This document shows, piece after piece, positions 2,484 through 44,464 of a stretch of DNA of 64,000 bases (its first letter is position 1; every line of letters begins with the position of its first letter). The translations under genes and the position numbers were made by a program. The notes under the pieces are model-generated. The model was not told where the DNA came from. It did no database searches and saw only the letters and a list, made by a program, of their open reading frames with translations. This DNA comes from Candidatus Sungiibacteriota bacterium (GTDB lineage: Bacteria > Patescibacteriota > Minisyncoccia > Sungbacterales > SURF-37): positions 345 to 64,344 of the forward strand of contig JACPMF010000004.1 in assembly GCA_016186145.1 (NCBI GenBank), written 5' to 3'.

Positions 2484-2485
2484 GG

Positions 2486-4440: not shown

Positions 4441-4506
4441 CCGCGACTTACAACTTACAACCCGCGACTCACAACTTGTTGTTGGTCGTTAGTTGTTGGT
4501 TGTTAG
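4441..4506. repeat. hairpin/palindromic element with TACAACCAACAAC-type arms (copy 1)
   Basis: acttacaacttacaacc...gttgttggtcgttagttgttggttgt forms an imperfect inverted repeat; a related copy lies at 27236-27300 in opposite orientation. Confidence 0.5.
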
Positions 4507-4585
4507 TCACGAAGGTTTGCCCTTTCCTTTCCAGGACCCTTTGAACAAGGTTATTTGCCACAAGCATACCCCAACATACGGTTAT

Positions 4586-4716
4586 GTCAACCCCGTTAGA
4601 AGTAGTGCGCGTGCTCGTGGATTCATCGATATGCATTACTACCGGATGTATTTACCAGCTTCGTTTTATCGGTTTTGTGAAAAGAATTCGCGCACGCGAC
4701 TTCTAACGGGGTCAAC
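4586..4716. repeat. MITE-like element, CCCGTTAGAAG terminal-inverted-repeat family (divergent copy A)
   Basis: Left end gtcaaCCCCGTTAGAAGT and right end ACTTCTAACGGGGtcaac; sub-terminal GC-rich inverted repeats (gtgcgcgtgc / gcgcacgcgac). Confidence 0.6.
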
Positions 4717-4775
4717 CCATCCCCGTCATCCTTGTTGCTTCCCAAACCCGCATATTGTATAGGTATGAATAACCA

Positions 4776-5873: not shown

Positions 5874-5931
5874 GCGCAAAATCAAAACACAAAAATTAAA
5901 CACAAAAATTTTACATTTTTGAATTTATTTT

Positions 5932-8169
5932 ATGAAGCTCCTCATTGTCGAATCTCCCGCTAAAGCAAAAACTATTTCAAAATATCTGCATGGAGAATAT
6001 ACCGTCCGCGCAAGCATCGGGCATATTCGAGATTTACCAAAATCAAACAAAAAAGCCATAGACGTAGCCGCCGGTTTTATTCCCCACTACGAAATTGTAA
6101 AAGGAAAAGAGCGGGTCGTGGACGAGCTTTCCTCTCTTTCGAAGGAAGCCGATGAGATAGTACTGGCAACCGACCCTGATCGCGAAGGAGAGGCCATCGC
6201 GTGGCATGTAGCCCAGGCTCTTGGCCTTGAAAACTCTAAGCCCGCCCCTCAGGTCCCGAACCCCGGGTCGAGGAAAACCCCAAACCCCAAACCGAAAGTG
6301 GAGCGAGTTGTTTTCAACGAAATAACCCAACGAGCTGTTCAAGAAGCAATGACCCATCCGCGTTCAATAGATATGAAGCTCGTTAGCGCCCAACAAGCGC
6401 GCAGAGTTCTCGATCGCCTCTTCGGGTACGACCTCTCCGGCCTCATATGGAAAAAAGTCCGTTACGGTCTTTCTGCGGGCCGGGTGCAATCGCCCGCACT
6501 TCGCATTATTGTCGAGCGCGAACGGGAAATCCGCGCCTTCGTACCGGAAGACTACTGGGTCATCTCCGGACAGTTCCAAACACCCCGGAAAGAAATTCTT
6601 GTTCTCATGTGCGCCGAAGAACCGAAAACCGAGAAAGAGGCCCTGCGCATAGTCAGCGCCGCAAAAGAAGGCTCATGGCATATTATTTCCGTGACGGAAA
6701 CAGAAACGAAACGCTCACCGCGACCGCCCTTTATAACCTCAACTCTCCAACAGACCGCAAGTTCTCGTTTTGGGTTCTCTCCTTCATACACCATGTCAAT
6801 TGCGCAAAAGCTCTATGAACAAGGGCATATCAGCTATATGCGGACCGACAGCCCGATTTTAAGCCAGGACGCCCTACCCGCGATTTACGCCGAAATTGAA
6901 AAAGCATATGGCGCCAACTTTCTTTTGCCGAGAACCTACACCGCAAAGTCAAAAACGGCCCAGGAGGCGCATGAAGCAATCAGGCCGAGCAATATAAAAG
7001 CAAAAACAGCAGGGTCGACTCCCGAACAAAAAAAACTTTATGCGCTCATTCGCGAACGAACTCTCGCCTCACAGATGGCGGACGCAAAAATTCTTCGAAC
7101 AAAAATATCAGCCAACATCGCCGAATCCAAAGAATCAATACCGGATTTTTCGATAAACGGCAGTATCATGGCTTTTCCGGGATGGCTGCAGGCCGACCAA
7201 ACAGCCAAAGGCGAGGAACTTGAACTTCCGAAATTGAAGGAGGGTGACCCGCTTATACTGCAAGACATCGCGAGTGAAGCAAAAAAAACAGAACCGCCGG
7301 CGCGTTATACAGAGGCCGGACTCGTAAAAGAACTTGAACGGCGAGAAATCGGGCGCCCTTCAACCTACGCAACGATATTAAAAACCCTTCAGGACCGCGG
7401 CTATGTAGAAAAATTGGGCAGGGCGTTAAAACCAACGGACACCGGCGAGGTGGTAAGCACGTTCCTCGAAGAAAATTTTTCTTCTTATATCAGCGACTCT
7501 TTCACGGCGGAAATGGAAAATGACTTGGACGAAATTGCCGACGGTAAACGAGAGTACGCCAAAACCCTGCGTGATTTTTACGGCCCGTTCACGAAGGAGG
7601 TTAAATCAAAAGAGAAAATAGCAAAGCTCACAAACCTCGGAGAAGCTCCGAAAGAATTCCCCTGCCCGGTCTGCGGGAGCCCTATGATAATAAAACTTTC
7701 CCGGACCGGAAAATTCTTGAGCTGCAGCCGCTTCCCAAAGTGTCATGGCGCAAGGAAAATAGATGGCACGGTGCTCGAAGCGCCGAAAGAAACCGGCGAG
7801 ATGTGCCCTGAATGCACGGAAGGCAAACTGATTGAACGCGAAGGACGTTTCGGAAAATTCATCTCTTGCAGCAACTATCCAAAATGCAAATACATTAAAA
7901 AGAGCGCCGAGGAAGAGGCGCGGGCAAAAACCGGAGTCCAATGCCCGAAGTGCAAAGACGGTGAAATCGTTGAACGAAGGGGCCGCTTTGGACCGTTTTT
8001 CAGCTGTTCAAATTATCCAAAATGCGACTTCGCCATAAAAGCGCGGCCAACCGGAACCGTTTGTCCGCTTTGCAGTTCGCTCATGATGGAAGGAACCAAA
8101 ACAATTCCTGAAAGATGTAGCAGCAAAAATTGTCCGAATCACAATCCACACTTGGCTCAAAAAACTTAG
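5932..8169 (+). CDS. topA: DNA topoisomerase I
   Basis: TOPRIM N-terminus (MKLLIVESPAKAKTISKYL...TDPDREGEAIAWH), catalytic core, and multiple C-terminal C4 zinc ribbons (CPVCGSP, CPECTEG, CPKCKDG, CPLCSS). Confidence 0.9.
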   Translation: MKLLIVESPAKAKTISKYLHGEYTVRASIGHIRDLPKSNKKAIDVAAGFIPHYEIVKGKERVVDELSSLSKEADEIVLATDPDREGEAIAWHVAQALGLENSKPAPQVPNPGSRKTPNPKPKVERVVFNEITQRAVQEAMTHPRSIDMKLVSAQQARRVLDRLFGYDLSGLIWKKVRYGLSAGRVQSPALRIIVEREREIRAFVPEDYWVISGQFQTPRKEILVLMCAEEPKTEKEALRIVSAAKEGSWHIISVTETETKRSPRPPFITSTLQQTASSRFGFSPSYTMSIAQKLYEQGHISYMRTDSPILSQDALPAIYAEIEKAYGANFLLPRTYTAKSKTAQEAHEAIRPSNIKAKTAGSTPEQKKLYALIRERTLASQMADAKILRTKISANIAESKESIPDFSINGSIMAFPGWLQADQTAKGEELELPKLKEGDPLILQDIASEAKKTEPPARYTEAGLVKELERREIGRPSTYATILKTLQDRGYVEKLGRALKPTDTGEVVSTFLEENFSSYISDSFTAEMENDLDEIADGKREYAKTLRDFYGPFTKEVKSKEKIAKLTNLGEAPKEFPCPVCGSPMIIKLSRTGKFLSCSRFPKCHGARKIDGTVLEAPKETGEMCPECTEGKLIEREGRFGKFISCSNYPKCKYIKKSAEEEARAKTGVQCPKCKDGEIVERRGRFGPFFSCSNYPKCDFAIKARPTGTVCPLCSSLMMEGTKTIPERCSSKNCPNHNPHLAQKT

Positions 8170-8245
8170 AAAAAATTTTGTGTCAAAAATCTTGCTATAG
8201 CAGGATTTTTGACCACTGAAAATTTTGCTGTGGGATAAATAGAAA

Positions 8246-8270
8246 AACGCCCGATAAATGGGCGCTTTGT
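8246..8270. terminator. rho-independent-terminator-like hairpin downstream of topA
   Basis: aaacgcccgataaatgggcgcttt: GC stem with a T-run. Confidence 0.45.
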
Positions 8271-8349
8271 GACTTTTATGTCCGTTCCAGACGTGACGGA
8301 ATTTGATTTCTCCTTGATTCAAGAAAAAACGCCCCTCGGGCGTTTTCGA

Positions 8350-8568
8350 CTATCGAGACAACACAAACCCTTTCCATTCGTCGCTTAGTCCCCCGCCAAG
8401 CTCGGGCGGAAAGACAACCATTCGGCTTCTGTCGGCATACTTACGAAGATAGCCCTCATAAGAAACCTCTTCAGTGTAACCGCATCGGGTATTTGTACAG
8501 CGCGCACCACGAGCCCTCGCATCATGAACTAAATACCATTCTTGGCATCTCGGACAACGATCAGTCAT
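8350..8568 (-). CDS. small zinc-ribbon protein (hypothetical)
   Basis: 72 aa with CPRC...C..C.. cysteine pairs; followed by a terminator hairpin at 8327-8348. Confidence 0.35.
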   Translation of the reverse strand: MTDRCPRCQEWYLVHDARARGARCTNTRCGYTEEVSYEGYLRKYADRSRMVVFPPELGGGLSDEWKGFVLSR

Positions 8569-8583
8569 GGCATCTCCCGACTT

Positions 8584-8877
8584 TCACTTTCCATCGCCGA
8601 CAAAATGCCTCACGAACTTTATGAAAAACGCTTTCTGACGAGCGGCCGTCATAAGAAGAAGATGATATTTCTTTGCATCGAGGGGGCCCGGCTCCAATCC
8701 AAGCGCCTTAGGAATGACAAAATCACACCCCAAAACCGGACAGTAGTTCAACTCTCCACAGCCGAAATTATTGTCGAGTTCCTCATCATAAACCCTTTCC
8801 AGTGGCTGGGGGTTTGAATGACGACCACAGTGACCTCGAGTGCCACCCACAGTTATCCTGACCATCACTCCCCCCAT
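8584..8877 (-). CDS. hypothetical small protein
   Basis: ORF 8584-9033, trimmed to the internal Met (MGGVMV) so that it does not overlap the upstream gene; Cys-rich. Confidence 0.3.
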   Translation of the reverse strand: MGGVMVRITVGGTRGHCGRHSNPQPLERVYDEELDNNFGCGELNYCPVLGCDFVIPKALGLEPGPLDAKKYHLLLMTAARQKAFFIKFVRHFVGDGK

Positions 8878-8878
8878 T

Positions 8879-9991
8879 TTAGAACCTAGTTGACGGAACA
8901 ATAATGTGCGGGTCGGGACTATTTCTACCGGCAAGCCATAAAGGATAGTCCTCTTCAACTTTAGTATAAGGATCAAGCCCAGCCGCTTTCCGAATTTGGT
9001 TAACGCTTTCTTGAAAAACTTCGCCAAGCTCAACGGTAGCCAGACGAGTCTCTACCACCATGGCGCTTCCATCTTCCAAAACTTCTTGGTTACGAATCTT
9101 TTGCTGCAATTCCGGGGAAAACTTCAATGCCCCGATTTCTGGACTCGACAGAGCTTTCGGCAACTCGTAGTCGGCAGGAAGAATAAGAAATTCCGTACCC
9201 TTTAACCGCGTAAGCACTGAAGACGAGCGAGCTCTTCCTTCATACATCTGCGCAAAAAGATGCGCTCGCTTAAAGAACGGAAGCGGCGGGCCAAACCCTC
9301 CGCCGGGAAGCGGAAGACTTGTGTATACATCATAGAACGACTCAAAACTAGCGATGACCTCAACCACTCCCCTGCCGTTATCAAAAGCCCTGAACGAAGA
9401 GCCGCGAAAGACGTTTATCCATTGGTCGTCAAAATCCTGAAGCCGCAACGCGCTTTCGTAAAGCAACGACCGCCGCTCTCGCAACATGGGAATTACATTA
9501 AGCGGCGGGACGCCACGAAAGACGTTCGCCGCGCGCTTCAAATTCCATTCCCTTAAATCTCGAAGAAACTTCGGATCAGTAATCGGCAATCCCTCTTTAA
9601 GCGCGCGCCTTAAGCAAGCGGTCATAGCGGTGGCACCGCTGTGAAGACGCGCCGGCTGCTCATGGATCAAACAGCGATACACTCTCTTTTTCTCATCAAC
9701 CTTTTCGTAATGTCGAAGATCCTGCCCACAGGCCCGGCATTCCGGCCACAGGGTCTGAAACTTGGTCTTTGTAACCGCATCGGTGAAATAAAAATTGATG
9801 GTATCAACCATGCCAAGAAACTGTACAAACTCAAGATCGTCTTCCGGGTAAATACCATCGCGCCACGACGGAGCCACGAGTTCCTGCAAGGCAATCTTTT
9901 CGGCAAACTCCCGCATCTTGTCAAAGTGCGGCCACGCATAAAAACGCGGGTAGTTTGAATAAGCGCTCAGCCGCAAAAGATATGGATTCAT
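8879..9991 (-). CDS. hypothetical protein (start placed at MNPYLL; the ORF-track N-terminal extension is spurious)
   Basis: The long ORF has a 5-prime extension that runs into MITE copy B. The ATGAAT start sits exactly at the element boundary. Confidence 0.5.
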   Translation of the reverse strand: MNPYLLRLSAYSNYPRFYAWPHFDKMREFAEKIALQELVAPSWRDGIYPEDDLEFVQFLGMVDTINFYFTDAVTKTKFQTLWPECRACGQDLRHYEKVDEKKRVYRCLIHEQPARLHSGATAMTACLRRALKEGLPITDPKFLRDLREWNLKRAANVFRGVPPLNVIPMLRERRSLLYESALRLQDFDDQWINVFRGSSFRAFDNGRGVVEVIASFESFYDVYTSLPLPGGGFGPPLPFFKRAHLFAQMYEGRARSSSVLTRLKGTEFLILPADYELPKALSSPEIGALKFSPELQQKIRNQEVLEDGSAMVVETRLATVELGEVFQESVNQIRKAAGLDPYTKVEEDYPLWLAGRNSPDPHIIVPSTRF

Positions 9992-10115
9992 CCCGTTAGA
10001 AGCAGGTCGCGGTAACGCCTCATTTCTATTGCTCCTATCTGTCATTGTTTTGCCTCCTGTCTTCCATATCCCGCTGATTTTTAGAGCTGCGACCGCGGCT
10101 TCTAACGGGATTCAT
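9984..10115. repeat. MITE-like element, CCCGTTAGAAGC family (copy B)
   Basis: ggATTCAT|CCCGTTAGAAGCaggtcgcggt ... accgcgGCTTCTAACGGG|ATTCATcc; terminal inverted repeats with ATTCAT direct flanks. Confidence 0.7.
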
Positions 10116-10236
10116 CCGAAACCCCCTCTCGGTTTTGTCTCAAAAAAATTTTAAAAGAGCAACAATAAACTACTGTATAATAAGGATTCGCTGCTTAAAT
10201 TGCAATCATTAAAAAAACGGCATACAATGAAATCCT

Positions 10237-11985
10237 ATGGGTGTCAAATCTGATGCGGAACAACTATTTTTCAAGCTTTCCAGCACGCTCCAAGAACAAG
10301 CGCGCGAACCGAAAGAAATCAAGTTAATCAGCAACGCATACAACTTTGCGGTTATTGCGCATGACGGGCAAAACAGAAAATCAGGAGAACCTTACATCAT
10401 CCACCCTCTCGCCGTGGCAAACCGTCTTGCCGCGATGCGTCTTGACGCGGAAACAATCGCCGCCGGGCTTTTGCATGACGTCTGCGAAGACACCGCGGCG
10501 ACAATTCAGGATATTCAAAAAGAGTTCGGCGAGAACATCGCGTTTCTCGTGGACGGCGTCACAAAGTTAGGACTCCTCCGGTACCGCGGCAGCGAGCGCG
10601 GCGCGGAAAACCTAAGGAAGATGTTCCTCGCCGTAGCCGAAGACATCCGCGTCGTACTGATTAAGCTCGCGGACCGGCTGCATAATATGGAAACCCTCGA
10701 ACATGTCGCTCTCGAAAAACAAAAACGCATAGCAATTGAAACTCTCGAAATTTATGCGCCGCTTGCATATCGCCTCGGGATCGGAGAATTTAAAGGGCGG
10801 CTCGAAGACCTCGCGTTTCCCCACATCTACCCGGAAGAACACCGCTGGCTGGTACACCACGTCCAGGAAACTTTTGAAGACCGCAAGTTATACACCGAAC
10901 GCCTCATTCCCCAAATCGGCAGCGAGCTTCGTGAAGAAAAACTGACCCCCCTCGACATTCACGCCCGCGCCAAGCACCACTACTCTCTCTATAAAAAACT
11001 GCTCGCCCACGATATGGACCTGGGAAAAGTTTATGACTTGGTCGCCGTGCGGATAATCGTCAAAAATATGGAGGATTGCTATCGCGCCCTCGGGGTCATA
11101 CACGCCCGTTGGAAACCCCTCCCCGGGCGCATCAAAGACTATATTGCGATGCCAAAGCCGAACGGTTATCGATCGCTTCATACCACCATCTTTGGCCCGG
11201 AAGGAAAGATCACCGAAATCCAAATTCGAACACCGGACATGCACGAAGAAGCTGAAAACGGCATTGTCGCGCACTGGGCATACAGCGAGGCAAAGGTAAG
11301 ACCGGAGTTCAAAAAACGTAACGGCGAAAACACGCGAAGCAAAAACCTTGCCTGGGTAAAACAGCTTCGGGAATGGCAAAAAGAATTCCAAAATCCGGAC
11401 GAATTTCTCGAGTCCCTGAAAATCGATTTTTTCAAAGACCGGATTTTTGTTTTCACGCCGAAAGGCGACGTCATTGACCTTCCCGAAGAATCGACGCCGA
11501 TTGATTTTGCATACCAAATCCACTCGACCATTGGAGGCACTGCGATTGGGGCGAAAGTAAACGGCAAAATCGCAGCCCTCGATTACCGGCTCTCTTCGGG
11601 CGACATGGTCGAAATACTTACCCAAAAAAACAAGATACCAAGTCGCGATTGGCTCGGATTCGTCAAAACCGCATCGGCCAGAAAAAAAATAGCGTCCATC
11701 CTCCGAAGGCGGCGGGAAGAAATTTCATTTTCACAAAAAAGCGGCACGGCCGTTGAACTTCGGCTGACCGCAAAAGACAGAATAGGGCTCCTAAAAGATG
11801 TCGCGCGCGTGATTGCCGACCACCGGATCAACATGAAAAACATTTCATCGGAAACAAAAAACCGCCTCTTTCCGGCGATCACGATCCAAATTACTCCGCG
11901 CTCAAAACAATCTCTTGAAAAGCTGCTGGTCCGCCTGAAAGCAATAAAAGGGGTAGAGGAAGTCGAGTATAAACTACTTAGTTAA
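10237..11985 (+). CDS. rel: bifunctional (p)ppGpp synthetase/hydrolase, RelA/SpoT family
   Basis: HD domain (HPLAVA...HDVCED), RelA/SpoT synthetase core (YRSLHTTI), TGS and C-terminal ACT (RLTAKDRIGLLKDVARVIADHRINM). Confidence 0.9.
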   Translation: MGVKSDAEQLFFKLSSTLQEQAREPKEIKLISNAYNFAVIAHDGQNRKSGEPYIIHPLAVANRLAAMRLDAETIAAGLLHDVCEDTAATIQDIQKEFGENIAFLVDGVTKLGLLRYRGSERGAENLRKMFLAVAEDIRVVLIKLADRLHNMETLEHVALEKQKRIAIETLEIYAPLAYRLGIGEFKGRLEDLAFPHIYPEEHRWLVHHVQETFEDRKLYTERLIPQIGSELREEKLTPLDIHARAKHHYSLYKKLLAHDMDLGKVYDLVAVRIIVKNMEDCYRALGVIHARWKPLPGRIKDYIAMPKPNGYRSLHTTIFGPEGKITEIQIRTPDMHEEAENGIVAHWAYSEAKVRPEFKKRNGENTRSKNLAWVKQLREWQKEFQNPDEFLESLKIDFFKDRIFVFTPKGDVIDLPEESTPIDFAYQIHSTIGGTAIGAKVNGKIAALDYRLSSGDMVEILTQKNKIPSRDWLGFVKTASARKKIASILRRRREEISFSQKSGTAVELRLTAKDRIGLLKDVARVIADHRINMKNISSETKNRLFPAITIQITPRSKQSLEKLLVRLKAIKGVEEVEYKLLS

Positions 11986-12043
11986 AACAAGCCGCATATA
12001 AAAATCTTTCATTAACGGCGATGTAACGAAAAAACCCGAACGA

Positions 12044-12206
12044 GCCATATCCTAAAATTTTCCATTGCAAAGATGTGAATACAAATTGACGAGCGAGCGA
12101 AACAAAATAACGGAAATTCGCTTATTTCGAATTTCCGTTATTCATTTTGTAAGGCTCGCGAGAATAATTTGCTCACATCGCTGCCTGGAAAATTTTAGGA
12201 TATGGC
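12044..12206. repeat. element bounded by 21-bp perfect inverted repeats (GCCATATCCTAAAATTTTCCA) with an internal 37-bp palindrome
   Basis: Inverted repeats at 12044-12064 and 12186-12206; inner palindrome aataacggaaattcgcttatttcgaatttccgttatt at 12106-12142. Lies between the convergent rel and parB genes. Confidence 0.55.
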
Positions 12207-12209
12207 GAG

Positions 12210-13328
12210 TCAGACTTCTCTGATAATCTTCCCGAGAATTGCCTGCAACTCTTCTTCCGAATAAAACTCAACGACTATTTTTCCGCGGGATCCGTCTTTT
12301 TGTAAAAGCACCTTGGTGCCAAGCGTTTCTTCAAGACGCGACTGCGCCACGCGTATTTCCGGGTCCATAAACATGGCATTCCGGCGCTTTGTAGGGCGGC
12401 GGGCGCCCAAGATGGCGCGAGTGGCAAGTTCTACATCCCGGACCGAAAGATTATTTGCTAGAGTCTCTTCAAAAAGCTTTGCCTGGTTTTCAGGAAGATC
12501 CTGAAGAGTCAAAAGCGCCCTTGCGTGACCTTCGGTTATGAGCCCGCCCCCCACCGCTTCTTGAATATTCCCGGGCAACGCCACCAAACGCACCGCATTT
12601 GCGACATATTCACGGGATTTACCAATACGCTCGCCCACCTGTTTATGGGTCAATTTGAATTCTTCAGAAAGCTGTTTGAACGCCTTGGCCCGTTCTATCG
12701 GATTAAGATCTTCGCGCTGAACATTTTCAATCAGAGCCAATTCCAACTTCTGCCGCTCCGGCGTCTGTCCGCGTTTGATTATGGAGGGAATCTCACGAAG
12801 CCCAGCCATAACTGACGCCCGCCATCTCCGCTCCCCAGCTATAATTTGATAGCGAACATCGAAGCCGCGCGGGGTTTCGAGCTCAACTTTCGATACCACA
12901 ATGGGCTGGAGTACGCCATGAACTTTTATTGAGTCAGCAAGGCTTTTTAGCGCCTCAATATCAAATTCCCGGCGCGGCTGAAAAGGATTTGGTTCTATTT
13001 TATCGATATCAATCCAGAAAACGCTCTCGCCTTTCGACCGGGCAAATTTCATTTCTTGATCGTAAGGGCCAACCGGAACCCCTGCCGGTATCTGTTGATT
13101 TAAAACTGGTTCTTGTTTAGGAAGAGTGTCGGCAACTGCAAAAACCGCGGGTTTTTGTTCTCCGGCCGGATCACCCGCATGCATAATTTTATAACTCGGC
13201 TCCAAAAGGTTTTCCTGCTCGCCAAGGACATCAAGCGGCTCTTTAATTACATAGCCGTTGAGTTCAGCACCCAATGGATTTAAATTGCCTTCAAAATTGT
13301 GTTGATTGTCGCTCGACATATCTACCAC
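12210..13328 (-). CDS. parB: ParB/Spo0J family partition protein
   Basis: ParB box (QPRREFD), GERRWRA, HTH; N-terminal extension of about 100 aa. Confidence 0.85.
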   Translation of the reverse strand: MVDMSSDNQHNFEGNLNPLGAELNGYVIKEPLDVLGEQENLLEPSYKIMHAGDPAGEQKPAVFAVADTLPKQEPVLNQQIPAGVPVGPYDQEMKFARSKGESVFWIDIDKIEPNPFQPRREFDIEALKSLADSIKVHGVLQPIVVSKVELETPRGFDVRYQIIAGERRWRASVMAGLREIPSIIKRGQTPERQKLELALIENVQREDLNPIERAKAFKQLSEEFKLTHKQVGERIGKSREYVANAVRLVALPGNIQEAVGGGLITEGHARALLTLQDLPENQAKLFEETLANNLSVRDVELATRAILGARRPTKRRNAMFMDPEIRVAQSRLEETLGTKVLLQKDGSRGKIVVEFYSEEELQAILGKIIREV

Positions 13329-35953: not shown

Positions 35954-36364
35954 TTATCGGCGCAGAAGAAAAGAGGCCGGACTGTTTTCGTGCAATGCAA
36001 GCCAATGGGTTAGTTCCCGTCGAACCAACCACGAAGAATCTAAAAATCGGTATGCCGCAAACGGCCGATTGAATAGAAAGTAAAACTGGAATCTTGGTAT
36101 TACGCCAAACCAAAAAACAATAAAAAACAAAAGCAAAAGAAGCCCGCCGATGCTGTCGCTAAAAATGGCCGCTGAAAAACTTCTAAAAGTGTCGAGATGA
36201 AACTTCGCAAATGAAAAAGTATTCCACCCTTCAGGACAATCTATTCCTTTGGCGATCGCCACGATACATCCGCCGTGGTCGTTTCCATGCCCCATAATCA
36301 TAAACCCAAAAACGGCAATTCCGACAAAACCGATAAGCACAAAAAGTGTAAAGAGTGGCTTCAT
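35954..36364 (-). CDS. hypothetical small membrane protein
   Basis: 136 aa, two or three TM segments; ATGAAG start abuts MITE copy D. Confidence 0.4.
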   Translation of the reverse strand: MKPLFTLFVLIGFVGIAVFGFMIMGHGNDHGGCIVAIAKGIDCPEGWNTFSFAKFHLDTFRSFSAAIFSDSIGGLLLLLFFIVFWFGVIPRFQFYFLFNRPFAAYRFLDSSWLVRRELTHWLALHENSPASFLLRR

Positions 36365-36584
36365 CCCGTTAGAGACCCGCCTGCCATCGCCTTTGTGTGA
36401 AGAAAGGAGGCGGTTCTATACTTTAACTTACTAATGTGTGATTTCTCAACTCTATAGAAGGGCATATGGCGGGCAGGTAGGACGCGGACGCACAAAACAC
36501 CCAACGCCCTATATTGTTATTGCTTACAAATTTTTACTCTTCTATAAAATTTTATTCGCGTCCGCGATCTCTAACGGGATTCAT
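36360..36584. repeat. MITE-like element, CCCGTTAGAG/CTCTAACGGG family (copy D, 225 bp)
   Basis: cTTCAT|CCCGTTAGAGacccgcctgcc...gcgtccgcgatCTCTAACGGG|ATTCAT. Confidence 0.7.
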
Positions 36585-36752
36585 CCCGTTAGAAGCAGAT
36601 CGCAATCGCATAATTGCTATCTGAATACATTATTGTTCTATATCCCAATAATATTTTATGAATCTCGTAACTTCTACAAGCGATCGCGCCTGCCTGCCTA
36701 CTGGCAGGCAGGCCGACAAGCAGGGCTTCTAACGGGATTCATAACCACAGTA
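36578..36752. repeat. MITE-like element, CCCGTTAGAAGC family (copy E, tandem to D, sharing the ATTCAT junction)
   Basis: ATTCAT|CCCGTTAGAAGCagatcgcaatcgc...gcctgcctgcctactggcaggcaggc...GGCTTCTAACGGG|ATTCAT. Confidence 0.75.
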
Positions 36753-36829
36753 TAGCAAAGCGTGAGAAAAACACAAAAAGGAAATGGACCTCGTCCGTGC
36801 CAGTTGGAACCAGGTTATACAGTTTCTGC

Positions 36830-37239
36830 TTACTTGGCAGAAACTGCCAACTCTTGGAGTTTCTTCAGAGCTTCTTCTACAGAGTTGACTATAAAACCAG
36901 TTTTCTTTACGAACTCAATAGACCATTTCGGGTTCCTGTCTTCATGCCAAATGATAATCAGTTTATTACAAAAGTCACCAGGCATTTTCGTGTTGTTCGC
37001 ATAAAAATAACCTATTTCTATCCACGTTCCTTCCGAAGTCGCTAAACCAGGATTGGCAACCATAAAGTCAGCACTTTTTATTCCATTCAAATCATCAGGA
37101 AAAAATGTATCTGGAGAAGTTTGGTCTGAATCAAATTCATAATCGTGAAAATCAAAACTGTCTAACTTCTTGAATTCTTCCTTCCAATCATTTTCGTATT
37201 CGTTAGGTTGACCAGCAAGATATACTTTTTTCTTTTGCA
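36830..37239 (-). CDS. nucleoside 2-deoxyribosyltransferase-like protein
   Basis: KVYLAG...W...F..., then ADFMVANPGLATSEGTWIEIGYFYA; start placed at MQKKKVYLAG. Confidence 0.55.
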
Positions 37240-37544
37240 TAGATATACATGGATACAAGCATTTTAATATGGATTTGGTGGTCATTATACGATAAAATCA
37301 GAACCTTTTTTGAGCAAAATCCCGATTGATTTACCTAGTCATTCGGGTAGTCATTCACCCTACCTCGGAATGACTACCTTGCGTTTCTAAATCTGCCCAT
37401 CATTCCTATCTTTTCTGACTTAACTACCTCTAAAATCAAAGTCCGACTTTCCTCCTCCGGAGGACTGGCTCGCCGCCCTGCTGGTCGGCTCGCTTGGTCG
37501 CCGAAATTCCTCCCCTCAAACCCCTCCTTCCGGCTCCTTTTCCC

Positions 37545-38420
37545 CTAATTCTTGAGCCTCGAATTCAGGACTTCTTTAAGGGTAATCCCATCTTTGCTTT
37601 TCCATTCCAGTGGGCCAGAAGCAGATCTTCCTAATATGACACCACATGCTGCACTTGAGCTATCAAATACATAATCGTCAGTAAAGACAAGGGTGGTACC
37701 CTGGACACTTAATCGTTGCATTGCCACAAGTTCATCCTTGAGTTTTTTATACGGATGAGTCTGAAAAGACGGCGTTTCTTCTAATGAGGCCGTAGAAGAT
37801 TTCAAAACTTTCATTTTTCCGTCTTCTAAGAGATGGCCCGTAGCTATGATATTGGATCCTTTTTTGCAGATAAAAACCAAAGGGGTAACAGGTGTTTTCC
37901 CAGAAGTAAATTCACTTTGCACAAATATATCGTATCCGAGCAGAGGCATAATTGTTGCTAGGTTTTCATAAAACACCTCTAATCCACTTACATCTTCTTT
38001 TGGGATCGTAGGCACGCCAGGATTGTTAGCATTTTTTAGGTTACACTTCCCGATTTTCTTGAGACGTTCAATACAAACACTTTCGAGGTATTGAATTCCT
38101 GTTTTTGTTAATGATCCATCTTGACTTACAAAAACAACAACATCCTGCCACCAATCTTTTTTATAATCGTGATCTCTAATTCTTTCCTTGAAACCATCAG
38201 CTTCACCAACGTACACATTGAGCAATCCACCTTCATCAGAGCTACCAATGAGAAAGTAAACGCAAGCTCCACTTTCTATTTCAGGCAACGTAATGATTTC
38301 ATTTAAAGCGTTACGAGGGCCACAAATGGCTTTGCCACTCCACTGATCAATCCTCACTTCCCTTACTCCCTTCGGAAGTCCTGCTGCCAAAAAAATTGTG
38401 ATCTTCTTACCTTGATTCAT
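37545..38420 (-). CDS. GIY-YIG nuclease domain protein with a C-terminal DUF4357-like domain
   Basis: CVYFLIGSSDEGGLLNVYVGEADGFKERIRDH (GIY-YIG-like); overlaps the methyltransferase stop by 14 bp. Confidence 0.55.
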   Translation of the reverse strand: MNQGKKITIFLAAGLPKGVREVRIDQWSGKAICGPRNALNEIITLPEIESGACVYFLIGSSDEGGLLNVYVGEADGFKERIRDHDYKKDWWQDVVVFVSQDGSLTKTGIQYLESVCIERLKKIGKCNLKNANNPGVPTIPKEDVSGLEVFYENLATIMPLLGYDIFVQSEFTSGKTPVTPLVFICKKGSNIIATGHLLEDGKMKVLKSSTASLEETPSFQTHPYKKLKDELVAMQRLSVQGTTLVFTDDYVFDSSSAACGVILGRSASGPLEWKSKDGITLKEVLNSRLKN

Positions 38421-39603
38421 AAGTTTTTTTCGGTTTTAGAAGCAGCACTAGTTCTTCCGACTTTACTCTAGATTTCTTCTCGCGGTTATGTTTATTAAAC
38501 TTATTATTGCCACCTAAGGTACTGAATCTGCCAATCACATGCTTGTGAATGCGGCTTTTATTTTTATCCAGATTAAAATATTTTTTAGCCAATTCAATAA
38601 CCTTATCTCCAGACAATCCATTGCTAGATTTTCCTTTAGGAAAGGTAAAAATAACTTTAACCTTCTTTCTCGACAGGCCGGATAAGAGTTGCTCTAAAGC
38701 TTTATATGATTGTCCCGCATTACTAAATTCTGATTGTGGACGCTCAGATATATCCGGATAACGTCCAATACCGGTAACTTCTCCGCAGTAACCACGTGCA
38801 ATTGTTTCAAGTACATGATAAAAACGACTATATTGGACACCGGAATAGGGCGGATCAAGAAGAACCAAATCTCCTCTTTTTAATTTAGGTATTAATTTTT
38901 TAGCGTCTGAAACCATCGCCCTACCTTTTACTTTCGCGTGTAGAGGGACGAGTTCTTTTAACGCGCTATCGCAGGATTTAAAAATATCAGTGCGCCATGC
39001 AATTTCAATAAATTTTCCGGCCCCGGCAGTTGGCTGAAAAGGTTGGGCGGTATGTCCAGGAGCAGCAGCAGCCCTAGAAGCAGCAATTATGGTTGCTGCT
39101 AAGCAAATATCTCTGTATTTAGTTTGCTTAGGTAATGTATTTAAAAGATAGTCGATGGTAATGGCTTGTTTCGGACTAAAATAATGGCCTCCGTAAGCAC
39201 GCCAAACGGGACCAATCTTAGAGGGAGTTTTGCAAAGTTTCCTTGCCGCATTAACTCTCAACTTTATTTTTCCGGAATACTTTTGATCTACTCCATTGGC
39301 TTTATTTAGAAGCTTCGAAGTATTTAGTTTCTTTTTTGCTTTCTCTATCCAAGCTCTCTTTAAATATTCCGCATCGAATACCTTAGTGCGTCCAATTACG
39401 GCTCTTGCGAGAACAACAGCGTATTTTTGCAGATCACCTGCAATAATTTCGCCTTTAAAATTCAGATTTTTAGCAACAAAATTTATTACTCCTCCGGAAC
39501 CGCAAAATGGGTCAATGAATCTATTGGCATACGGAAGCTGCTCACGGAGTAAGTCTCCGAGACCATTGCTCAACATAAACCTTTTTGAACCCATGTATTT
39601 CAT
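38407..39603 (-). CDS. DNA N6-adenine methyltransferase, Dam-like (D12 class)
   Basis: Motif I FIDPFCGSGGV and motif IV LLDPPYSG; N-terminus KYMGSKRF as in Dam; ATGA overlap with the upstream gene. Confidence 0.85.
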   Translation of the reverse strand: MKYMGSKRFMLSNGLGDLLREQLPYANRFIDPFCGSGGVINFVAKNLNFKGEIIAGDLQKYAVVLARAVIGRTKVFDAEYLKRAWIEKAKKKLNTSKLLNKANGVDQKYSGKIKLRVNAARKLCKTPSKIGPVWRAYGGHYFSPKQAITIDYLLNTLPKQTKYRDICLAATIIAASRAAAAPGHTAQPFQPTAGAGKFIEIAWRTDIFKSCDSALKELVPLHAKVKGRAMVSDAKKLIPKLKRGDLVLLDPPYSGVQYSRFYHVLETIARGYCGEVTGIGRYPDISERPQSEFSNAGQSYKALEQLLSGLSRKKVKVIFTFPKGKSSNGLSGDKVIELAKKYFNLDKNKSRIHKHVIGRFSTLGGNNKFNKHNREKKSRVKSEELVLLLKPKKTYESR

Positions 39604-40940
39604 AGGCAAAGTTGCGAAAGAGCTATTCTTTCGCATCCCGATAGCGCCAACAGCTCTGTTGCGAAATTTGAACGCCATTGGTAGTGATTGTTTACAGAAG
39701 AAGAACTACTGCTCATACTTGCCAGCGCTTCTTCCACTTCAATCCACATATCAGAGATGGGATTTACTTGCCCGGGCTCCCATAGTCCATAATTTTCTCC
39801 TAATGTTTCCCACCAAAATTTTATGTCGTTTCTTGAGATACGAGCGTTTTCAATCATAGTCATCCCTGCTCCTGTTGCTAACCTTAAAAGTAGAGTCGCC
39901 CTGCTCAACATCTGAATATGATAATCAGGATCAGTCGTTTTCCCCTTTTTACTTGCTTCGACAATCAACATAGGATCTCTTTGCTGTGTTTTTCGACTAA
40001 AAATCTGAGTTAGGGTGGTTAGTTCAGGATCACTTATGCCAAGATCTGTAAGTATTTTTCTAATCTGAGATTGCGAGAGTTGCCCGTTATTATATTTTTC
40101 CCAGCTCAATCTTAATAAAAAGGTATCTGCGACAAAACCACCAGTTCCATTCATGCTACACATGCGCCATATATTTTCTACTATCCCCAAAGAATTCCTG
40201 ATCTGAATAGAATTCCTAAAACTAAGGTCGTTCAAAATACCGCTTGGTCTATAGCTTGCGTGTTCACGTGCAGATTGATCTATTCCCAATGTTGTTATGT
40301 CGTACCCCCAATGTTTAAGCCAATCTTTTGCTAAATAATTGAGTGGCGCTGTTGAGATCTCAGAAAACCAAGTTTCTAAAGTTATACTATTAGGCCGAAT
40401 AATTTTTTGAAATAGTCTTCCAGAATCAGGGCGACCGAGCCAATCAATAAATTGCTTTCTTACTAGTGCGTGGGTTTTTTCTGAAATCGGCCCGTAAATA
40501 TCTGAAGACTTTCCATTAGCACCCACTATTGAAAAATGTTTTGCACTGAAAACACCTATGCCATCACTTGCAAGTAAAGACATCACAGCTCTCAGTTGGG
40601 CATAATATGCAAAATGCTTACAAGCCTGGATGTCGCCAACGGCATGACTAATTATAGCTTTACCCAAGAAACTCCAACCATCCACGCAGTGTAAGGGAAC
40701 TGAAGCGGCTATGTACTCTGCTAATTGAGTTTTTTTAGGTCCCGTTATTCGGTGAGGTGCTCTTCTGGGACAATCCTTTTCTATTTTTTCCGTACAGTTT
40801 TTTGCATATCTATTTTGAACACCAAGCCAGCCACCCCTTACAAAGTGTCTTTTAAGACGATTAAAGGTTTCTTGGGTAGCTATCCGAGAATAATGTCTAG
40901 TTGAAAATTTATCTGGCATTCTTGGCATCTTCTTTAGCAA
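39600..40940 (-). CDS. hypothetical protein (446 aa) inside the defence cassette
   Basis: No recognisable motif; translationally coupled between the DGQHR and methyltransferase genes. Confidence 0.5.
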   Translation of the reverse strand: MLKKMPRMPDKFSTRHYSRIATQETFNRLKRHFVRGGWLGVQNRYAKNCTEKIEKDCPRRAPHRITGPKKTQLAEYIAASVPLHCVDGWSFLGKAIISHAVGDIQACKHFAYYAQLRAVMSLLASDGIGVFSAKHFSIVGANGKSSDIYGPISEKTHALVRKQFIDWLGRPDSGRLFQKIIRPNSITLETWFSEISTAPLNYLAKDWLKHWGYDITTLGIDQSAREHASYRPSGILNDLSFRNSIQIRNSLGIVENIWRMCSMNGTGGFVADTFLLRLSWEKYNNGQLSQSQIRKILTDLGISDPELTTLTQIFSRKTQQRDPMLIVEASKKGKTTDPDYHIQMLSRATLLLRLATGAGMTMIENARISRNDIKFWWETLGENYGLWEPGQVNPISDMWIEVEEALASMSSSSSSVNNHYQWRSNFATELLALSGCERIALSQLCL

Positions 40941-42444
40941 ATCCTAAAATCTTATATGTTTCTCTGGCAAGACTGCCAAAATCTTTACTAATAAAAAGGT
41001 GTTTTAACAGTTGACGCCTAAATTGTTTATAACCACTACCTCCTCGATAGGAAAGTTTAAGAACAAGATCATCTTCGCTTAATCCTTTCGCCGCTGAAGA
41101 TCTCCAATCAAATTTAGACAATTCTTTGGCAAGTTTAAATACAAAATCAGCAAGTATTTTTTTCTTCTTTAAATCTTTAAGTTCCGATGCTGAGCTCGAC
41201 TCCGCGTTCGGATTCCACTCTTGTAATCTCAACTTTTCTCGATTGATAAATAGTAGATCATTTGTAACATTTAAAACCACAGAAATTCCTTGGTCATTGT
41301 TAAGCATTGTGTAAGGACCAACAAACGCAGGATCTCCGCTGACTGCCTTTTTATATTCTTGTTTCTTGGCATCGCGCAACTCAAGAGCCCACTTTGCCTT
41401 AGATTTTCTAACAGCGTCCCTTAATTCGTTCCAGAGATAAATAAGCAGGGCCGCTTGTTGGCTTTTATTCCAAGGAATTGCAATTTTATCCTGACCAACC
41501 GGTGCTCCAAATAGTCCGCCGATAGATATGCCTCTACCCTCAAATGACTTAACGTATGTTTTTAATAAAGCTCTTACCCAAGCTGCTTGAGTAACAGAGG
41601 GACCACCACTTTCCCCAAGCATGTTGATTCTATCGTACCAAGCACTATCCTTTTCTGACCATAGTATCTCAACTAGCTCTTGTGCTCGAGTTTCTCGGTA
41701 AACCTTATGGCCTTCAAATCTCTCAAGCCAATCTTCTGTCCGAAGTAAGGGGTACAGATCAAAAGCAAGGCTTGGGTTAATTCTTTTGGGCTTAATATTG
41801 ATTGTCCAAAAAAGATACGCTTGCCAACTTATATCAAGACCGTAAAATGCAACAACTGGAAGTTCATAATCTTCAGCAATACTTTTATCCTCAAACGCTA
41901 ACAGTCGGTGTTGCCCATCAATAATCTCAATGGGAAGTCTCTGTTTGGCCTGCCAGGTATTTGAATTATTAAAAGAAGCTGGCAACTGAACCTCGGCTAT
42001 GTTTCCTGCTAAATCCCTTACAGTCACTAGATCGTTCGGATCAACCCTTTCTCCATCACGCGTATCTTTGGCAGCTAAAATATTTACAACGATAGCTGTA
42101 GGTAACCAGCCTGGCTTTTGTAAATCATCAAACCTTTTCTCCTTACGTTGGGAATCAGTCAAATCTGACCAGGGATATCCGTATTTTATGTATTTCGCAA
42201 TTTTTTCTGATCGTGACGGTTCGTGAGCTCGTTGTAAACCGGTCCGCGACGCTAGACTCCTGCGATAGACACCTGAGAGTACCTGAAGTTGACGGGCGGA
42301 AAGTGAAAAAACGTAAAAATGATTTTGAGGCTCTCTACGATGCTCATTATTACTCCACTGAACAGAATCCCAGCCTTTAAGCCATTGGTTCACTTTTAAG
42401 GCCTGTATCTTATTTGGTTTGCGAGGCTGGGACTTCTTTTTCAT
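40909..42444 (-). CDS. DGQHR-domain protein (DndB-like, ParB-like nuclease superfamily)
   Basis: Exact IIDGQHRLLAF motif; 511 aa. Confidence 0.8.
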   Translation of the reverse strand: MKKKSQPRKPNKIQALKVNQWLKGWDSVQWSNNEHRREPQNHFYVFSLSARQLQVLSGVYRRSLASRTGLQRAHEPSRSEKIAKYIKYGYPWSDLTDSQRKEKRFDDLQKPGWLPTAIVVNILAAKDTRDGERVDPNDLVTVRDLAGNIAEVQLPASFNNSNTWQAKQRLPIEIIDGQHRLLAFEDKSIAEDYELPVVAFYGLDISWQAYLFWTINIKPKRINPSLAFDLYPLLRTEDWLERFEGHKVYRETRAQELVEILWSEKDSAWYDRINMLGESGGPSVTQAAWVRALLKTYVKSFEGRGISIGGLFGAPVGQDKIAIPWNKSQQAALLIYLWNELRDAVRKSKAKWALELRDAKKQEYKKAVSGDPAFVGPYTMLNNDQGISVVLNVTNDLLFINREKLRLQEWNPNAESSSASELKDLKKKKILADFVFKLAKELSKFDWRSSAAKGLSEDDLVLKLSYRGGSGYKQFRRQLLKHLFISKDFGSLARETYKILGFAKEDAKNAR

Positions 42445-42515
42445 ATAATTTATTTAGATTTTCTACATCTATATAATAGCAAGTTGAGATCTGCTAAGCA
42501 TGTTTCTTTATAATA

Positions 42516-42731
42516 TTAAAATTTGGCAAAAAAGTTTCCGATTTTTAAATTTAAAGCCTTCGCAATTTTTTCTATATTTTCCAATGTTATATTTTTCTCG
42601 GCTCTCTCAATCATGCCGATGTAAGTCCTATGAACGCCAGCGCGGGTGGCTAGTTTTTCTTGAGATAATCCTAATTTAGTTCGCTCCTCACGAACTCTTT
42701 TGCCAAATTTGATTAAGATTTCTCGTTTCAT
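42516..42731 (-). CDS. XRE-family HTH transcriptional regulator (controller-protein-like), first gene of the cassette operon
   Basis: 71 aa; canonical XRE HTH (LGLSQEKLATRAGVHRTYIGMIERAEKNITLENIEKIAKAL). Confidence 0.8.
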   Translation of the reverse strand: MKREILIKFGKRVREERTKLGLSQEKLATRAGVHRTYIGMIERAEKNITLENIEKIAKALNLKIGNFFAKF

Positions 42732-43032: not shown

Positions 43033-43098
43033 TAAAGACACCACAATTCAAAACTTTTCGACTTGTCCCCGGTGAAAAAGGCGAAAAGTTTTGAATTG
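43033..43098. repeat. long hairpin (ccacaattcaaaacttttcg ... cgaaaagttttgaattgtgg) between tRNA-Ala and the right repeat of the cassette
   Basis: 20-bp perfect inverted repeat around a 26-nt loop. Confidence 0.5.
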
Positions 43099-43170
43099 TG
43101 GACCGGATGGGATTCGAACCCACGGTCTCCTCAATGCCATTGAGGCGCTTTACCACTAAGCTACCGGCCC
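43099..43170 (-). tRNA. tRNA-Ala (anticodon GGC)
   Basis: GGGCCGGTAGCTTAGTGGTAAAGCGCCTCAATGGCATTGAGGAGACCGTGGGTTCGAATCCCATCCGGTCCA. Confidence 0.85.
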
Positions 43171-43234: not shown

Positions 43235-43759
43235 TTATTTTCTCAATTTCTTAACAACTTTATTTATCTGCGGCAGGAGCGATCGCGCATTGTTGATAAC
43301 AAAACCCGGTTTTAATTGCAATTTCTTTTTCTTGCGATGCAGGGCTCTTCGTAGATAGTGAACACGAATGGCCTCTTCGGCGCTCTGAAAAAGGTCCTTT
43401 CGTGAATACCGATGTTCCCTCAATCTTTTCAAGATTAACCTTTCCGGAGTCAGCACCCTGATAAACAAAGTCCCCGCACCGAATTGTTTTGCAAAACGAA
43501 CAAGCTCTTTTTGCCTTTGCGGCCGGACCGCGTCGAAATCAAGCACAACGGATTTTCCGGAGCAAAAAGCTTTTTGCGCCATCTGTTTTGCAATCAGCGG
43601 CGCCCGTGAATACGGCTTTCCTTTTTTGCGAAGGAGTACGCGGATATCGTCGGTTCTTATATGAACGGCTCCAATTCTTCGGGCAACAATTCGCGCAACA
43701 TGCGTCTTGCCTGACCCTACCGGCCCGATAAACGCAATAAGAAAGAGTCTCATTGTCAC
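43235..43759 (-). CDS. P-loop NTPase / predicted kinase (AAA_33/zeta-toxin-like)
   Basis: Walker A IGPVGSGKTHVAR; 174 aa. Confidence 0.6.
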   Translation of the reverse strand: MTMRLFLIAFIGPVGSGKTHVARIVARRIGAVHIRTDDIRVLLRKKGKPYSRAPLIAKQMAQKAFCSGKSVVLDFDAVRPQRQKELVRFAKQFGAGTLFIRVLTPERLILKRLREHRYSRKDLFQSAEEAIRVHYLRRALHRKKKKLQLKPGFVINNARSLLPQINKVVKKLRK

Positions 43760-44103
43760 TCCTTGCTATCTGCTAATACGCCCCCAACCTCCTGCAGGCG
43801 TCCAATGAAATCGTCTCGCTCTCCTTCGGAAAAATTTTCTCCGTCTCGCTGTAGTTTTAGCCGGTTGACGTCTTCGCGAAGCTGCTTCAGTAAATCAAGG
43901 GCCTGAAAGTACCGTTCTCTCCCCAACTCGCGCTCTAGACGCGGATCATAAACACCCGCCTCCACGCGGAAGAGAACGCCGTCAAACGCATTAAGCCAAC
44001 CGGCTTTTTCTCCAGCATCTTTTTCGGCGATTTCACGGACTGCGCTTATTATCTCTCTGATTTCAGAAAGACGGCTTGTTTCTTGTAAAAATTCTTTGCT
44101 CAT
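43756..44103 (-). CDS. hypothetical protein
   Basis: 115-aa ORF with a 4-bp overlap on the kinase gene. Confidence 0.4.
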   Translation of the reverse strand: MSKEFLQETSRLSEIREIISAVREIAEKDAGEKAGWLNAFDGVLFRVEAGVYDPRLERELGRERYFQALDLLKQLREDVNRLKLQRDGENFSEGERDDFIGRLQEVGGVLADSKE

Positions 44104-44185
44104 ATATTTTTACCAGCACGCTGCAGTAAGACTGAATCATTAAAGCCAACTTATAATAGTTTTAAAAACGAGAACCCGCCACTTG

Positions 44186-44464
44186 CTACTGCAATTTTAC
44201 ATCAGGCCGTTTTAATGCAACCTCTTCACGCAACACTTCACTCGCTTGCATATTAAAACCGAACGAATCTAATTTGGTTTGAATTTCTTTTTGAGTACCC
44301 TGCTCAACAAGAAACTTTCTCATAGCGTCGCGCTCCTCTGTTGTAATACTTCCCTCATTTCCTTTTAGGTAACTTTCCCATTTATCTTTTGCGGCCTCGC
44401 GAAACCAACGGCCGAAACTTTCGTCGTTTTCTTCATATGGCAACTTTTTTACTCCTTCTTCCAT
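44186..44464 (-). CDS. hypothetical protein
   Basis: 92-aa acidic ORF. Confidence 0.35.
   Translation of the reverse strand: MEEGVKKLPYEENDESFGRWFREAAKDKWESYLKGNEGSITTEERDAMRKFLVEQGTQKEIQTKLDSFGFNMQASEVLREEVALKRPDVKLQ

Follow-up and report, generated by a model that had tools for sequence, protein, structure and literature searches.

What does a protein without recognisable motifs do when its gene is wedged between a DGQHR-domain gene and a DNA methyltransferase gene? The question is raised by a stretch of 64,000 nucleotides from a Candidatus Sungiibacteriota bacterium (contig JACPMF010000004.1 of assembly GCA_016186145.1), which as a whole we call the window, and by the gene at 39600-40940, whose product we call X. 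An earlier annotation from the letters alone, here the sequence-only reading, had proposed X as a candidate specificity or effector subunit. We find that X represents an undescribed protein family without detectable relatives of known function, that X and the DGQHR protein form an invariant pair, and that the modification enzyme beside them is exchangeable.

Three start codons are available to X. The longest reading obtained by analysis of open reading frames (ORFs), 39600..40940 on the minus strand, begins with TTG at 40940 and encodes 446 aa; ATG codons at 40928 and 40919 yield 442 and 439 aa. We list the gene as 39600..40928 (442 aa, stop codon TGA at 39602-39600); the public gene calls for an identical and an 82%-identical X protein (P0001 and P0002) have lengths of 439 and 442 aa. 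The ORF named by the sequence-only reading exists, and we add to its description the minus strand and the exact length of 439-442 aa. Both of the overlaps it described are also borne out: the TGA of X and the methyltransferase ATG at 39603-39601 form an ATGA overlap (39603-39600), and the start of X overlaps the end of the DGQHR gene (stop codon TAA, 40911-40909) by 11 nt from ATG 40919, 20 nt from ATG 40928 or 32 nt from the TTG. A plus-strand ORF that overlaps X, 39296..39859, has no homologue support comparable to that of X.

To place these junctions in a wider setting, we used X to fetch 88 loci from genomes and metagenomes, called their ORFs, and classified them with iterated hidden Markov models (HMMs) built from the window proteins. 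In all 93 loci that reach far enough upstream, the gene immediately before X, on the same strand, is a DGQHR gene encoding about 500 aa. The median distance from the DGQHR stop to the X start is -1 nt, with 20 nt or less in 90 of 93 loci, and the X stop lies within 20 nt of the methyltransferase start in 67 of 71. The proposal that X is a co-expressed component of a methyltransferase cassette is supported by these tight junctions, which are general across loci. We see the pairing in the 88 loci fetched via X (wherever there is room), in 8 loci from viral contigs, on 2 plasmids, and in both of the two loci that were fetched via DGQHR. All three genes are kept in the eight viral-contig loci, including a branch with only 25-33% identity; there the methyltransferase follows X on the same strand in six and is convergent in two.

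The two proteins also evolve together. Across 51 unique triads, the Pearson correlation of pairwise distances is 0.865 for DGQHR and X, compared with 0.44 for X and the methyltransferase and 0.43 for DGQHR and the methyltransferase, so the co-evolution with DGQHR that had been suggested as a check is indeed there. Mean pairwise identity over the same triads is 0.33 for X, 0.49 for DGQHR, and 0.45 for the methyltransferase; X is the fastest-evolving of the three. These results show that DGQHR and X are an invariant, translationally coupled pair inherited as a unit.

The DGQHR protein itself (40909..42444, minus strand, 511 aa) carries the motif IIDGQHRL and belongs to the DndB-like, ParB/Srx-fold NTPase family. 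It exceeds the curated cutoffs of both TIGR03187 (3.4e-21, 76.2 bits against 58.85) and the Pfam DndB model PF14072 (9e-10, 38.5 bits against 29.1), and the pentapeptide D176-G-Q-H-R180 is invariant in 40 homologues; its membership of the DGQHR domain family is clear from these scores and the pentapeptide. An identical protein from a metagenome-assembled genome (MAG) bears the NCBI name 'DGQHR domain-containing protein [Candidatus Sungbacteria bacterium]'. Given that the protein scores above the DGQHR-domain thresholds yet far below the equivalog cutoffs for DndB-type proteins and DpdB, we place it in a separate subfamily. A structure model of a homologue was of moderate quality, with a predicted local distance difference test score (pLDDT) of 78, and a Foldseek search with it returned non-significant matches only, SspE and the ParB-like PadC among them. 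A second DGQHR-family gene, encoding 765 aa, stands directly after the methyltransferase of an otherwise normal cassette in an Actinomycetota MAG (L088, 6950-9247).

How conserved is X, and does it resemble anything known? We found 152 homologues, all about 440 aa long and unannotated, with full-length ones reaching an E of 1e-250. An X profile matched 1222 clusters at 50% identity, and the family is sharply bounded, since 1151 of these 1222 matches lie below 1e-10. Each of the best 150 of the 1222 profile matches was a full-length protein about 440 aa long, and neither a fusion nor a remote relative with an annotation appeared. Eleven residues are invariant in 250 of 250 unique sequences (H80, H105, Y108, Y109, L112, R113, H153, D210, R221, Y226 and R343), that is, three His, one Asp, three Arg, three Tyr and one Leu. 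Conservation of this kind typically marks an active site or a precise ligand site and, as judged from the alignment, suggests that X is an enzyme.

Searches for known folds came back empty. As the sequence-only reading had stated, X has no recognisable motifs: there were no matches in Pfam, NCBIfam, PADLOC v2, PHROGs, or the sequences of the PDB. Scanning 49 diverse family members with HMMs at E<=1 gave no meaningful match, the best-conserved N-terminal core fragments of 10 members gave none at E<=10, and the family profile hit only prion proteins by chance among PDB sequences. An AlphaFold2 model of X, built with a 49-sequence alignment, is confident (pLDDT 93, predicted template modelling score 0.94) and shows a single, mostly helical body with one beta-hairpin at 130-149; Foldseek found no match to it in the PDB or BFVD (best template modelling score <0.2). 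The PD-(D/E)xK, HNH and helicase folds that had been suggested as targets were not found with HMMs or with the predicted structure and Foldseek, and neither search gave a signal for His-Me, GIY-YIG, PLD or HEPN. Confident homology to a housekeeping enzyme, named by the sequence-only reading as a refutation, did not turn up.

Three more specific assignments were tried and dropped. A HEPN reading, from the helix-pair motif HFAYYAELRA..LLA..G (HFAYYAELRAAMSLLA..G), found no HEPN match in 49 full-length members or in 10 N-terminal core fragments at E<=10, and the invariant residues include no conserved Rx4-6H. A His-Me/DUF1524 (GmrD-like) reading lacks both a Pfam match and an EHxxP in the consensus; the model of X does contain a beta-beta-alpha element with H131 and T152-H153, which gives no evidence of a His-Me finger. 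Finally, a relationship between X and the C-terminal part of DGQHR was rejected at an hhalign probability of 0.3%.

The third gene encodes a D12-class (Dam-family) N6-adenine DNA methyltransferase (38407..39603, minus strand, 398 aa; Pfam MethyltransfD12 5.5e-15, PADLOC MTase_II 2e-19). Because its N-terminus, MKYMGSK, is conserved in 51 homologues (K2 and G5 in 51/51, M1 in 37/51), we take ATG 39603 as the true start; the longest ORF, from ATG 39678, is an over-extension. DPPY is present in 51/51, D-x-F-x-G is conserved and the motif for binding S-adenosylmethionine is intact, so that from its sequence the enzyme is expected to be active.

This enzyme is not a fixed part of the cassette. A D12 methyltransferase adjoins DGQHR-X in about 80 loci, after X in most and before DGQHR in five, and is missing in 11 of 88; some modification enzyme is adjacent in about 95% of loci. 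The place of D12 is taken by MT-A70 in three loci (L038, L082 and L101, two of them among the eleven), by N6_N4_Mtase in L078, by N6_Mtase in L086, and by DndC together with DndD in three more (L012, L017 and L036; DndC E 1e-203), where DGQHR-X sits in the dndB slot. One archaeal locus without D12, L053, carries a convergent gene for a 663-aa SMC_N/AAA_23 ATPase that is possibly DndD-like, together with a gene with a Schlafen AlbA_2 domain; the other three of the eleven have no modification gene close by.

Exchange is visible among close relatives as well. Compared with the window, L097 has 85% identity in DGQHR and 82% in X and only 45% along the whole length of the methyltransferase. L028 presents the reverse, with 82% in the methyltransferase and 83% in a DUF4357 protein against 61% in DGQHR and about 35% in X. 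Because the identities of both loci split there, recombination falls between X and the methyltransferase. Judged by these identities, there are two modules: DGQHR-X, and the methyltransferase either alone or together with the DUF4357 protein. A survey of 120 immediately flanking ORFs, covering 154 Pfam families, revealed no further conserved partner and no hidden nuclease gene; the conserved core is therefore DGQHR, X and an exchangeable modification enzyme.

Several of the exchanged loci have features of their own. In L036, an unclassified MAG (1198-12924), dnd_assoc_4 (TIGR04062) comes before DGQHR-X, and dndC-dndD follow immediately after the pair. In L012, a cyanobacterial MAG, a gene for an AAA_16 ATPase (8388-9935) separates X from dndC, and a 156-aa ORF occupies the position held by dnd_assoc_4 in L036. 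Further upstream, both L012 and L036 encode another DndD-like ABC ATPase, divergent and about 690 aa long, and a partner of about 220 aa of unknown function. L017 is a plasmid of Pseudanabaena (P. biceps O153); here, as in L012, DGQHR-X replaces dndB (L012 and L017, 5391-13661). In L101 (7001-11295), the genes after DGQHR-X are a complete Type II pair in convergent orientation, which encodes an MT-A70 methyltransferase and a BglII-like endonuclease; DGQHR-X can therefore adjoin a methyltransferase that already owns a nuclease.

Does the cassette belong to a system already described? Like DndB of dndBCDE, the partner of X belongs to the DGQHR/DndB family (TIGR03187, PF14072) and is associated with a modification operon, in three relatives from the very position of dndB. 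However, DndB is a single protein of about 370 aa without an X-like partner, and the window DGQHR protein reaches 58 bits against the 450-bit cutoff of TIGR04172, far short of DndB proper. The usual partner here is an adenine methyltransferase instead of DndCDE, X is unlike any Dnd protein, and DndC and DndD had no match among the window proteins scanned. DpdB is similar in being a DGQHR/DGQQR ParB-fold NTPase beside a DNA-modifying enzyme, with an N-terminal ParB fold and a helical C-terminal domain. It differs in having no obligate X-like partner, and our protein scores 22.4 bits against the NF041060 cutoff of 300 and 22 bits with the PADLOC DpdB model, which places it outside Dpd. DpdA and DpdC models (NCBIfam, PADLOC) had no match in the five cassette proteins scanned, the remainder of the window not having been searched for them.

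The closest functional analogy for a putative DGQHR switch with X as its effector is found in the GmrSD-type systems. GmrS/GmrD, GmrSD, SspE and BrxU combine a DUF262 ParB-like NTPase with a DUF1524 His-Me nuclease, as a sensor with a separate or fused effector, and SspE is coupled to a modification system. In contrast, X has no DUF1524 match or EHxxP, the DGQHR protein matches PF14072 and not DUF262, and most GmrSD-type systems target modified DNA (Type IV), whereas this cassette brings its own methyltransferase. Type II systems with a D12 methyltransferase share an active-looking alpha-class DPPY enzyme in the operon, a mobile and sporadic distribution and, in the window, a small upstream helix-turn-helix (HTH) gene resembling a controller protein. 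The cassette departs from them in having no recognisable endonuclease fold, two large partners instead of one nuclease, and a free exchange of methyltransferases that classical cognate pairs do not tolerate. The fourth gene of the window is a clear member of PADLOC PDC-S14 (E 5e-82), but it is an accessory in few cassettes, is unrelated to X, and travels with the methyltransferase. By their defining features, the cassette lies outside Dnd, Dpd, GmrSD/SspE and classical Type II systems.

The distribution of X is wide and patchy. A scan with a single pattern found relatives in 203 of 185,579 species genomes, a lower bound. The hosts include Patescibacteria, Omnitrophota, Planctomycetota, Cyanobacteria, Acidobacteriota, Verrucomicrobiota, Chloroflexota, Actinomycetota, Bacteroidota, Proteobacteria, and the archaeon Methanoregula. 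The commonest families in the 120 flanking ORFs are N6_Mtase, ResIII, Mrr_cat, integrase and HSDR_N. Sporadic occurrence across phyla, restriction and mobility neighbours, and, in the window, a low-GC (guanine plus cytosine) island beside a tRNA gene support the conclusion that the cassette behaves like mobile defence DNA. We rejected a phage origin, since no X match was found among 50,697 phage records and only 8 among 2.9 million viral contigs.

What, then, might X do? We tentatively favour a compact system resembling restriction-modification, in which a DndB-like NTPase switch would have X as its effector partner, a restriction or effector role proposed by analogy. In such a system, the methyltransferase (or DndCD) would mark host DNA, and the DGQHR protein would bind DNA and use the binding or hydrolysis of a nucleoside triphosphate (NTP) as a switch, as in DndB, DpdB, or the DUF262 domain of SspE and GmrSD. 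X would be the effector under DGQHR control, most likely an enzyme acting on unmarked DNA, with the split GmrS (ParB-like NTPase) and GmrD (nuclease) as a parallel for the pair. The modification enzyme, or the state of modification, would supply the specificity; indeed, because that enzyme is exchanged with DGQHR-X unchanged, sequence specificity is probably not encoded in X. DGQHR-X would then be the constant, non-modifying half of the system and the exchangeable modification enzyme the other half, a division that we hold with similar reserve. Of the marks of a restriction-modification-like class, the analysis covered the modification enzyme, which looks active (DPPY throughout) and is almost always adjacent.

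Published work on relatives forms the background. DpdB is a ParB-like ATPase that is stimulated by DNA and by its partner and works with DpdA on DNA, and SspE unites a DUF262 NTPase with a nuclease (PMC10164549). GmrS and GmrD can be separate proteins (PMC4619093), several restriction modules can share one modification module (PMC12707154), and DndB is an ATP-modulated DNA-binding repressor (PMC4507180). We think it rather unlikely, all its parts taken together, that DGQHR-X is a hitherto unrecognised, portable reader-effector module for chemically different marks, either N6-methyladenine (m6A) from four methyltransferase families or phosphorothioate from DndCD, in which X would be a new-fold His/Asp/Arg/Tyr enzyme switched by the ParB-like NTPase and part of what is called DndB-type 'regulation' would be the restriction arm of a three-gene defence system widespread in bacteria and archaea.

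Several observations weigh against an effector role, and most of them speak for the main rival, in which DGQHR-X governs modification. Here the pair would be a two-protein elaboration of DndB or DpdB that controls or assists the adjacent enzyme and does not attack DNA; we consider this doubtful as it stands. Its routes (transcriptional autoregulation, limiting of over-modification, or NTP-driven loading of the enzyme) would make the cassette an 'orphan' epigenetic module, which we likewise find somewhat unlikely. A regulatory or cofactor role is nonetheless a serious rival because DndB and DpdB, the closest relatives of the DGQHR protein to have been characterised, work on the side of modification, the former as an ATP-modulated repressor and limiter of phosphorothioation and the latter as a cofactor, an ATPase needed for DpdA (PMC4507180, PMC10164549); by analogy, this would argue against restriction. 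The DGQHR protein matches DndB/DpdB-type models and not DUF262, and DGQHR-X holds the dndB slot, upstream of dndC, in three loci. Neither X nor the C-terminal part of DGQHR yielded a match to a nuclease fold or to any other catalytic fold. Acceptance of m6A, of phosphorothioate and of a whole replacement methyltransferase would be hard to square with sequence-matched restriction, while a governor would be indifferent to the chemistry and to the replacement. In some loci the methyltransferase has a nuclease of its own (BglII-like in L101; the DUF4357, GIY-YIG-like protein in the window). Three loci in which DGQHR-X has no modification gene nearby also count against the effector role. On the other side, canonical DndB suffices alone at about 370 aa, whereas the present cassettes always include a further protein of 440 aa, in which eleven residues, mostly of catalytic type, are invariant. 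X is the fastest-evolving of the three proteins, as expected in an arms race; something that only regulates an orphan methyltransferase would not usually be found in a sporadic, horizontally mobile cassette among restriction and mobility genes; and in the single case of L074, insertions have disrupted the methyltransferase as well as DGQHR.

The enzyme-like invariant residues of X, without a nuclease fold, would also suit a guard that senses the modification enzyme or state and, on interference by a phage, triggers growth arrest or the depletion of nucleotides or nicotinamide adenine dinucleotide (NAD) in abortive infection instead of cutting foreign DNA. Such a guard is compatible with any modification chemistry, and there is a published link between ParB/DGQHR-type domains and abortive-infection families (PMC3632139). 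We regard it as improbable: the searches gave no domain of a toxin-like, NTP-depleting or signalling type, no specific observation favours a guard, and the close translational coupling to the methyltransferase is less well accounted for. Very unlikely, in our view, is the other role named by the sequence-only reading, an HsdS-like specificity subunit whose recognition is shared by the methyltransferase and a restriction activity. The position of X between both genes, with overlaps on either side, and its being the most variable of the three proteins would fit. However, D12 methyltransferases have their own target-recognition region, X contains no Methylase_S or other DNA-recognition domain, and its distances correlate with those of the methyltransferase at 0.44 compared with 0.87 for DGQHR. 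The methyltransferase can be replaced by one of 45% identity (L097, with DGQHR at 85% and X at 82%), by another family, or by DndCD while X is nearly unchanged, and variation among close X relatives is spread out instead of lying in one swappable domain. Without Methylase_S and without strict co-inheritance with the methyltransferase, X does not fit a Type I/III-style specificity subunit or a Mod-dependent restriction subunit. That X is a spurious ORF, or a housekeeping protein located here by chance, we can practically discount: the missing annotation is all that speaks for it, and it is refuted by full-length homologues in about 1,200 clusters, a confident predicted fold, and synteny that is invariant across phyla and domains.

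Some hosts of the cassette can be cultured and are genetically tractable: Zymomonas mobilis (on a 30.9-kb plasmid), Rhizobium tumorigenes, Pontibacter (P. aquaedesilientis JH31), Sphingomonas (S. colocasiae), Bradyrhizobium and Herbiconiux. The Zymomonas locus (NC_013788.1, 30,952 bp; cassette at 4322-7984) lies near a pair of DUF4433 and macro-domain genes, and plasmid records of the same length exist for strains ZM4 (ATCC 31821), CP4 and NRRL B-12526. The R. tumorigenes cassette is on plasmid pRt932 (4327-8252). Both plasmid cassettes are annotated 'DGQHR domain-containing protein / hypothetical protein / Dam-family methyltransferase'. The published methylome of Z. mobilis ZM4 reports three motifs only (PMC8432527). 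We rejected it as evidence that the cassette methyltransferase is silent, as we could not establish that the sequenced strain has the cassette: the cassette plasmid is recorded as pZZM405/CP4-type (30,952 bp), and the plasmids of the strain in the methylome study are named pZM32 and so on.

Degenerate cassettes occur as well. In L074 (594-11091), DGQHR is split by an insertion of about 4.7 kb and the methyltransferase is broken by an insertion of about 1.7 kb and a frameshift, with X intact; L026 has an in-frame stop within X. As single cases, these loci hint at a joint decay of DGQHR and the methyltransferase.

Beyond the three core genes, the cassette of the window contains a fourth, encoding a DUF4357 / PADLOC PDC-S14 protein (37545..38420, minus strand, 291 aa) that overlaps the methyltransferase stop by 14 nt (Pfam DUF4357 3.8e-16, PADLOC PDC-S14 4.8e-82, PHROG 12629 4e-57). 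Besides the window, we find it only in L028, L066 and one Saccharibacteria cassette that was fetched three times (L009, L099 and L100). It is an accessory gene, co-inherited with the methyltransferase and not with DGQHR-X, as the 83% and 82% identities in L028 indicate. Its N-terminal half has sub-threshold GIY-YIG matches (E 0.1-0.18) in the same place in 3 of 4 homologues, so the protein may be a GIY-YIG-like nuclease, a second nuclease arm that shares the methyltransferase.

At the other end, 71 nt upstream of the DGQHR gene, lies a 71-aa ORF of XRE type (42516..42731, minus strand; MKREILIKFGKRVREERTKLGLSQEKLA...), in which the HTH was assigned by eye and which may be a local, C-protein-like controller. 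We rejected it as a conserved controller: only 1 of 93 other loci has a related small ORF upstream of DGQHR (L053, on the opposite strand), and the HTH is therefore local to the window. The cassette is just downstream of a tRNA-Ala(GGC) gene (43098..43170, minus strand, ARAGORN), at the edge of the low-GC region and a possible landmark of insertion. The 3' end of this tRNA gene enters a perfect 19-bp inverted repeat, CACAATTCAAAACTTTTCG ... CGAAAAGTTTTGAATTGTG (43100-43082 and 43060-43042), that could be a terminator or a recombination site; no att duplication of the tRNA 3' end that would delimit an island was found in the window. GC content is 0.39-0.42 over 36000-42500 compared with about 0.49 in the flanks. 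The low-GC interval matches the four-gene cassette plus the ORF at 36830-37285, and is consistent with horizontal acquisition.

That ORF (minus strand, 151 aa) has a below-threshold match to the nucleoside 2-deoxyribosyltransferase family PF05014 (E 3.8e-5, 24 bits against a cutoff of 28.8). Nucleoside 2-deoxyribosyltransferase domains occur in nucleotide-targeting defence proteins. Between 35713 and 36743, an element of about 17-45 nt, TTCATCCCGTTAGAAGC..., and its reverse complement, GCTTCTAACGGGATTCATA, recur around the small ORFs adjoining the cassette (repeat families D1-D3) in what looks like a dispersed palindromic repeat. Beyond the tRNA, the minus strand encodes an AAA_33 kinase-like protein that weakly matches zeta toxin (43235-43759), and two small ORFs without annotation come after it (43756-44103 and 44186-44464); together (43235-44464), they are possibly a toxin-antitoxin-like set.

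A full-text literature search found no published description of a system composed of DGQHR, X and a methyltransferase, and PADLOC v2 lacks the X family. If DGQHR-X is a restriction or effector module, it would form a compact, widespread cassette (about 1,200 clusters in at least 203 species of bacteria and archaea) in which both the effector fold and the way the ParB-type nucleotide switch is used would be new. If it is a governor instead, no earlier controller of orphan methyltransferases would have consisted of two proteins and included an enzyme. In the former case, the pairing of DGQHR-X with adenine methylation or phosphorothioation would also bear on how restriction arms are matched to modification modules, and on the true role of DndB-like proteins.

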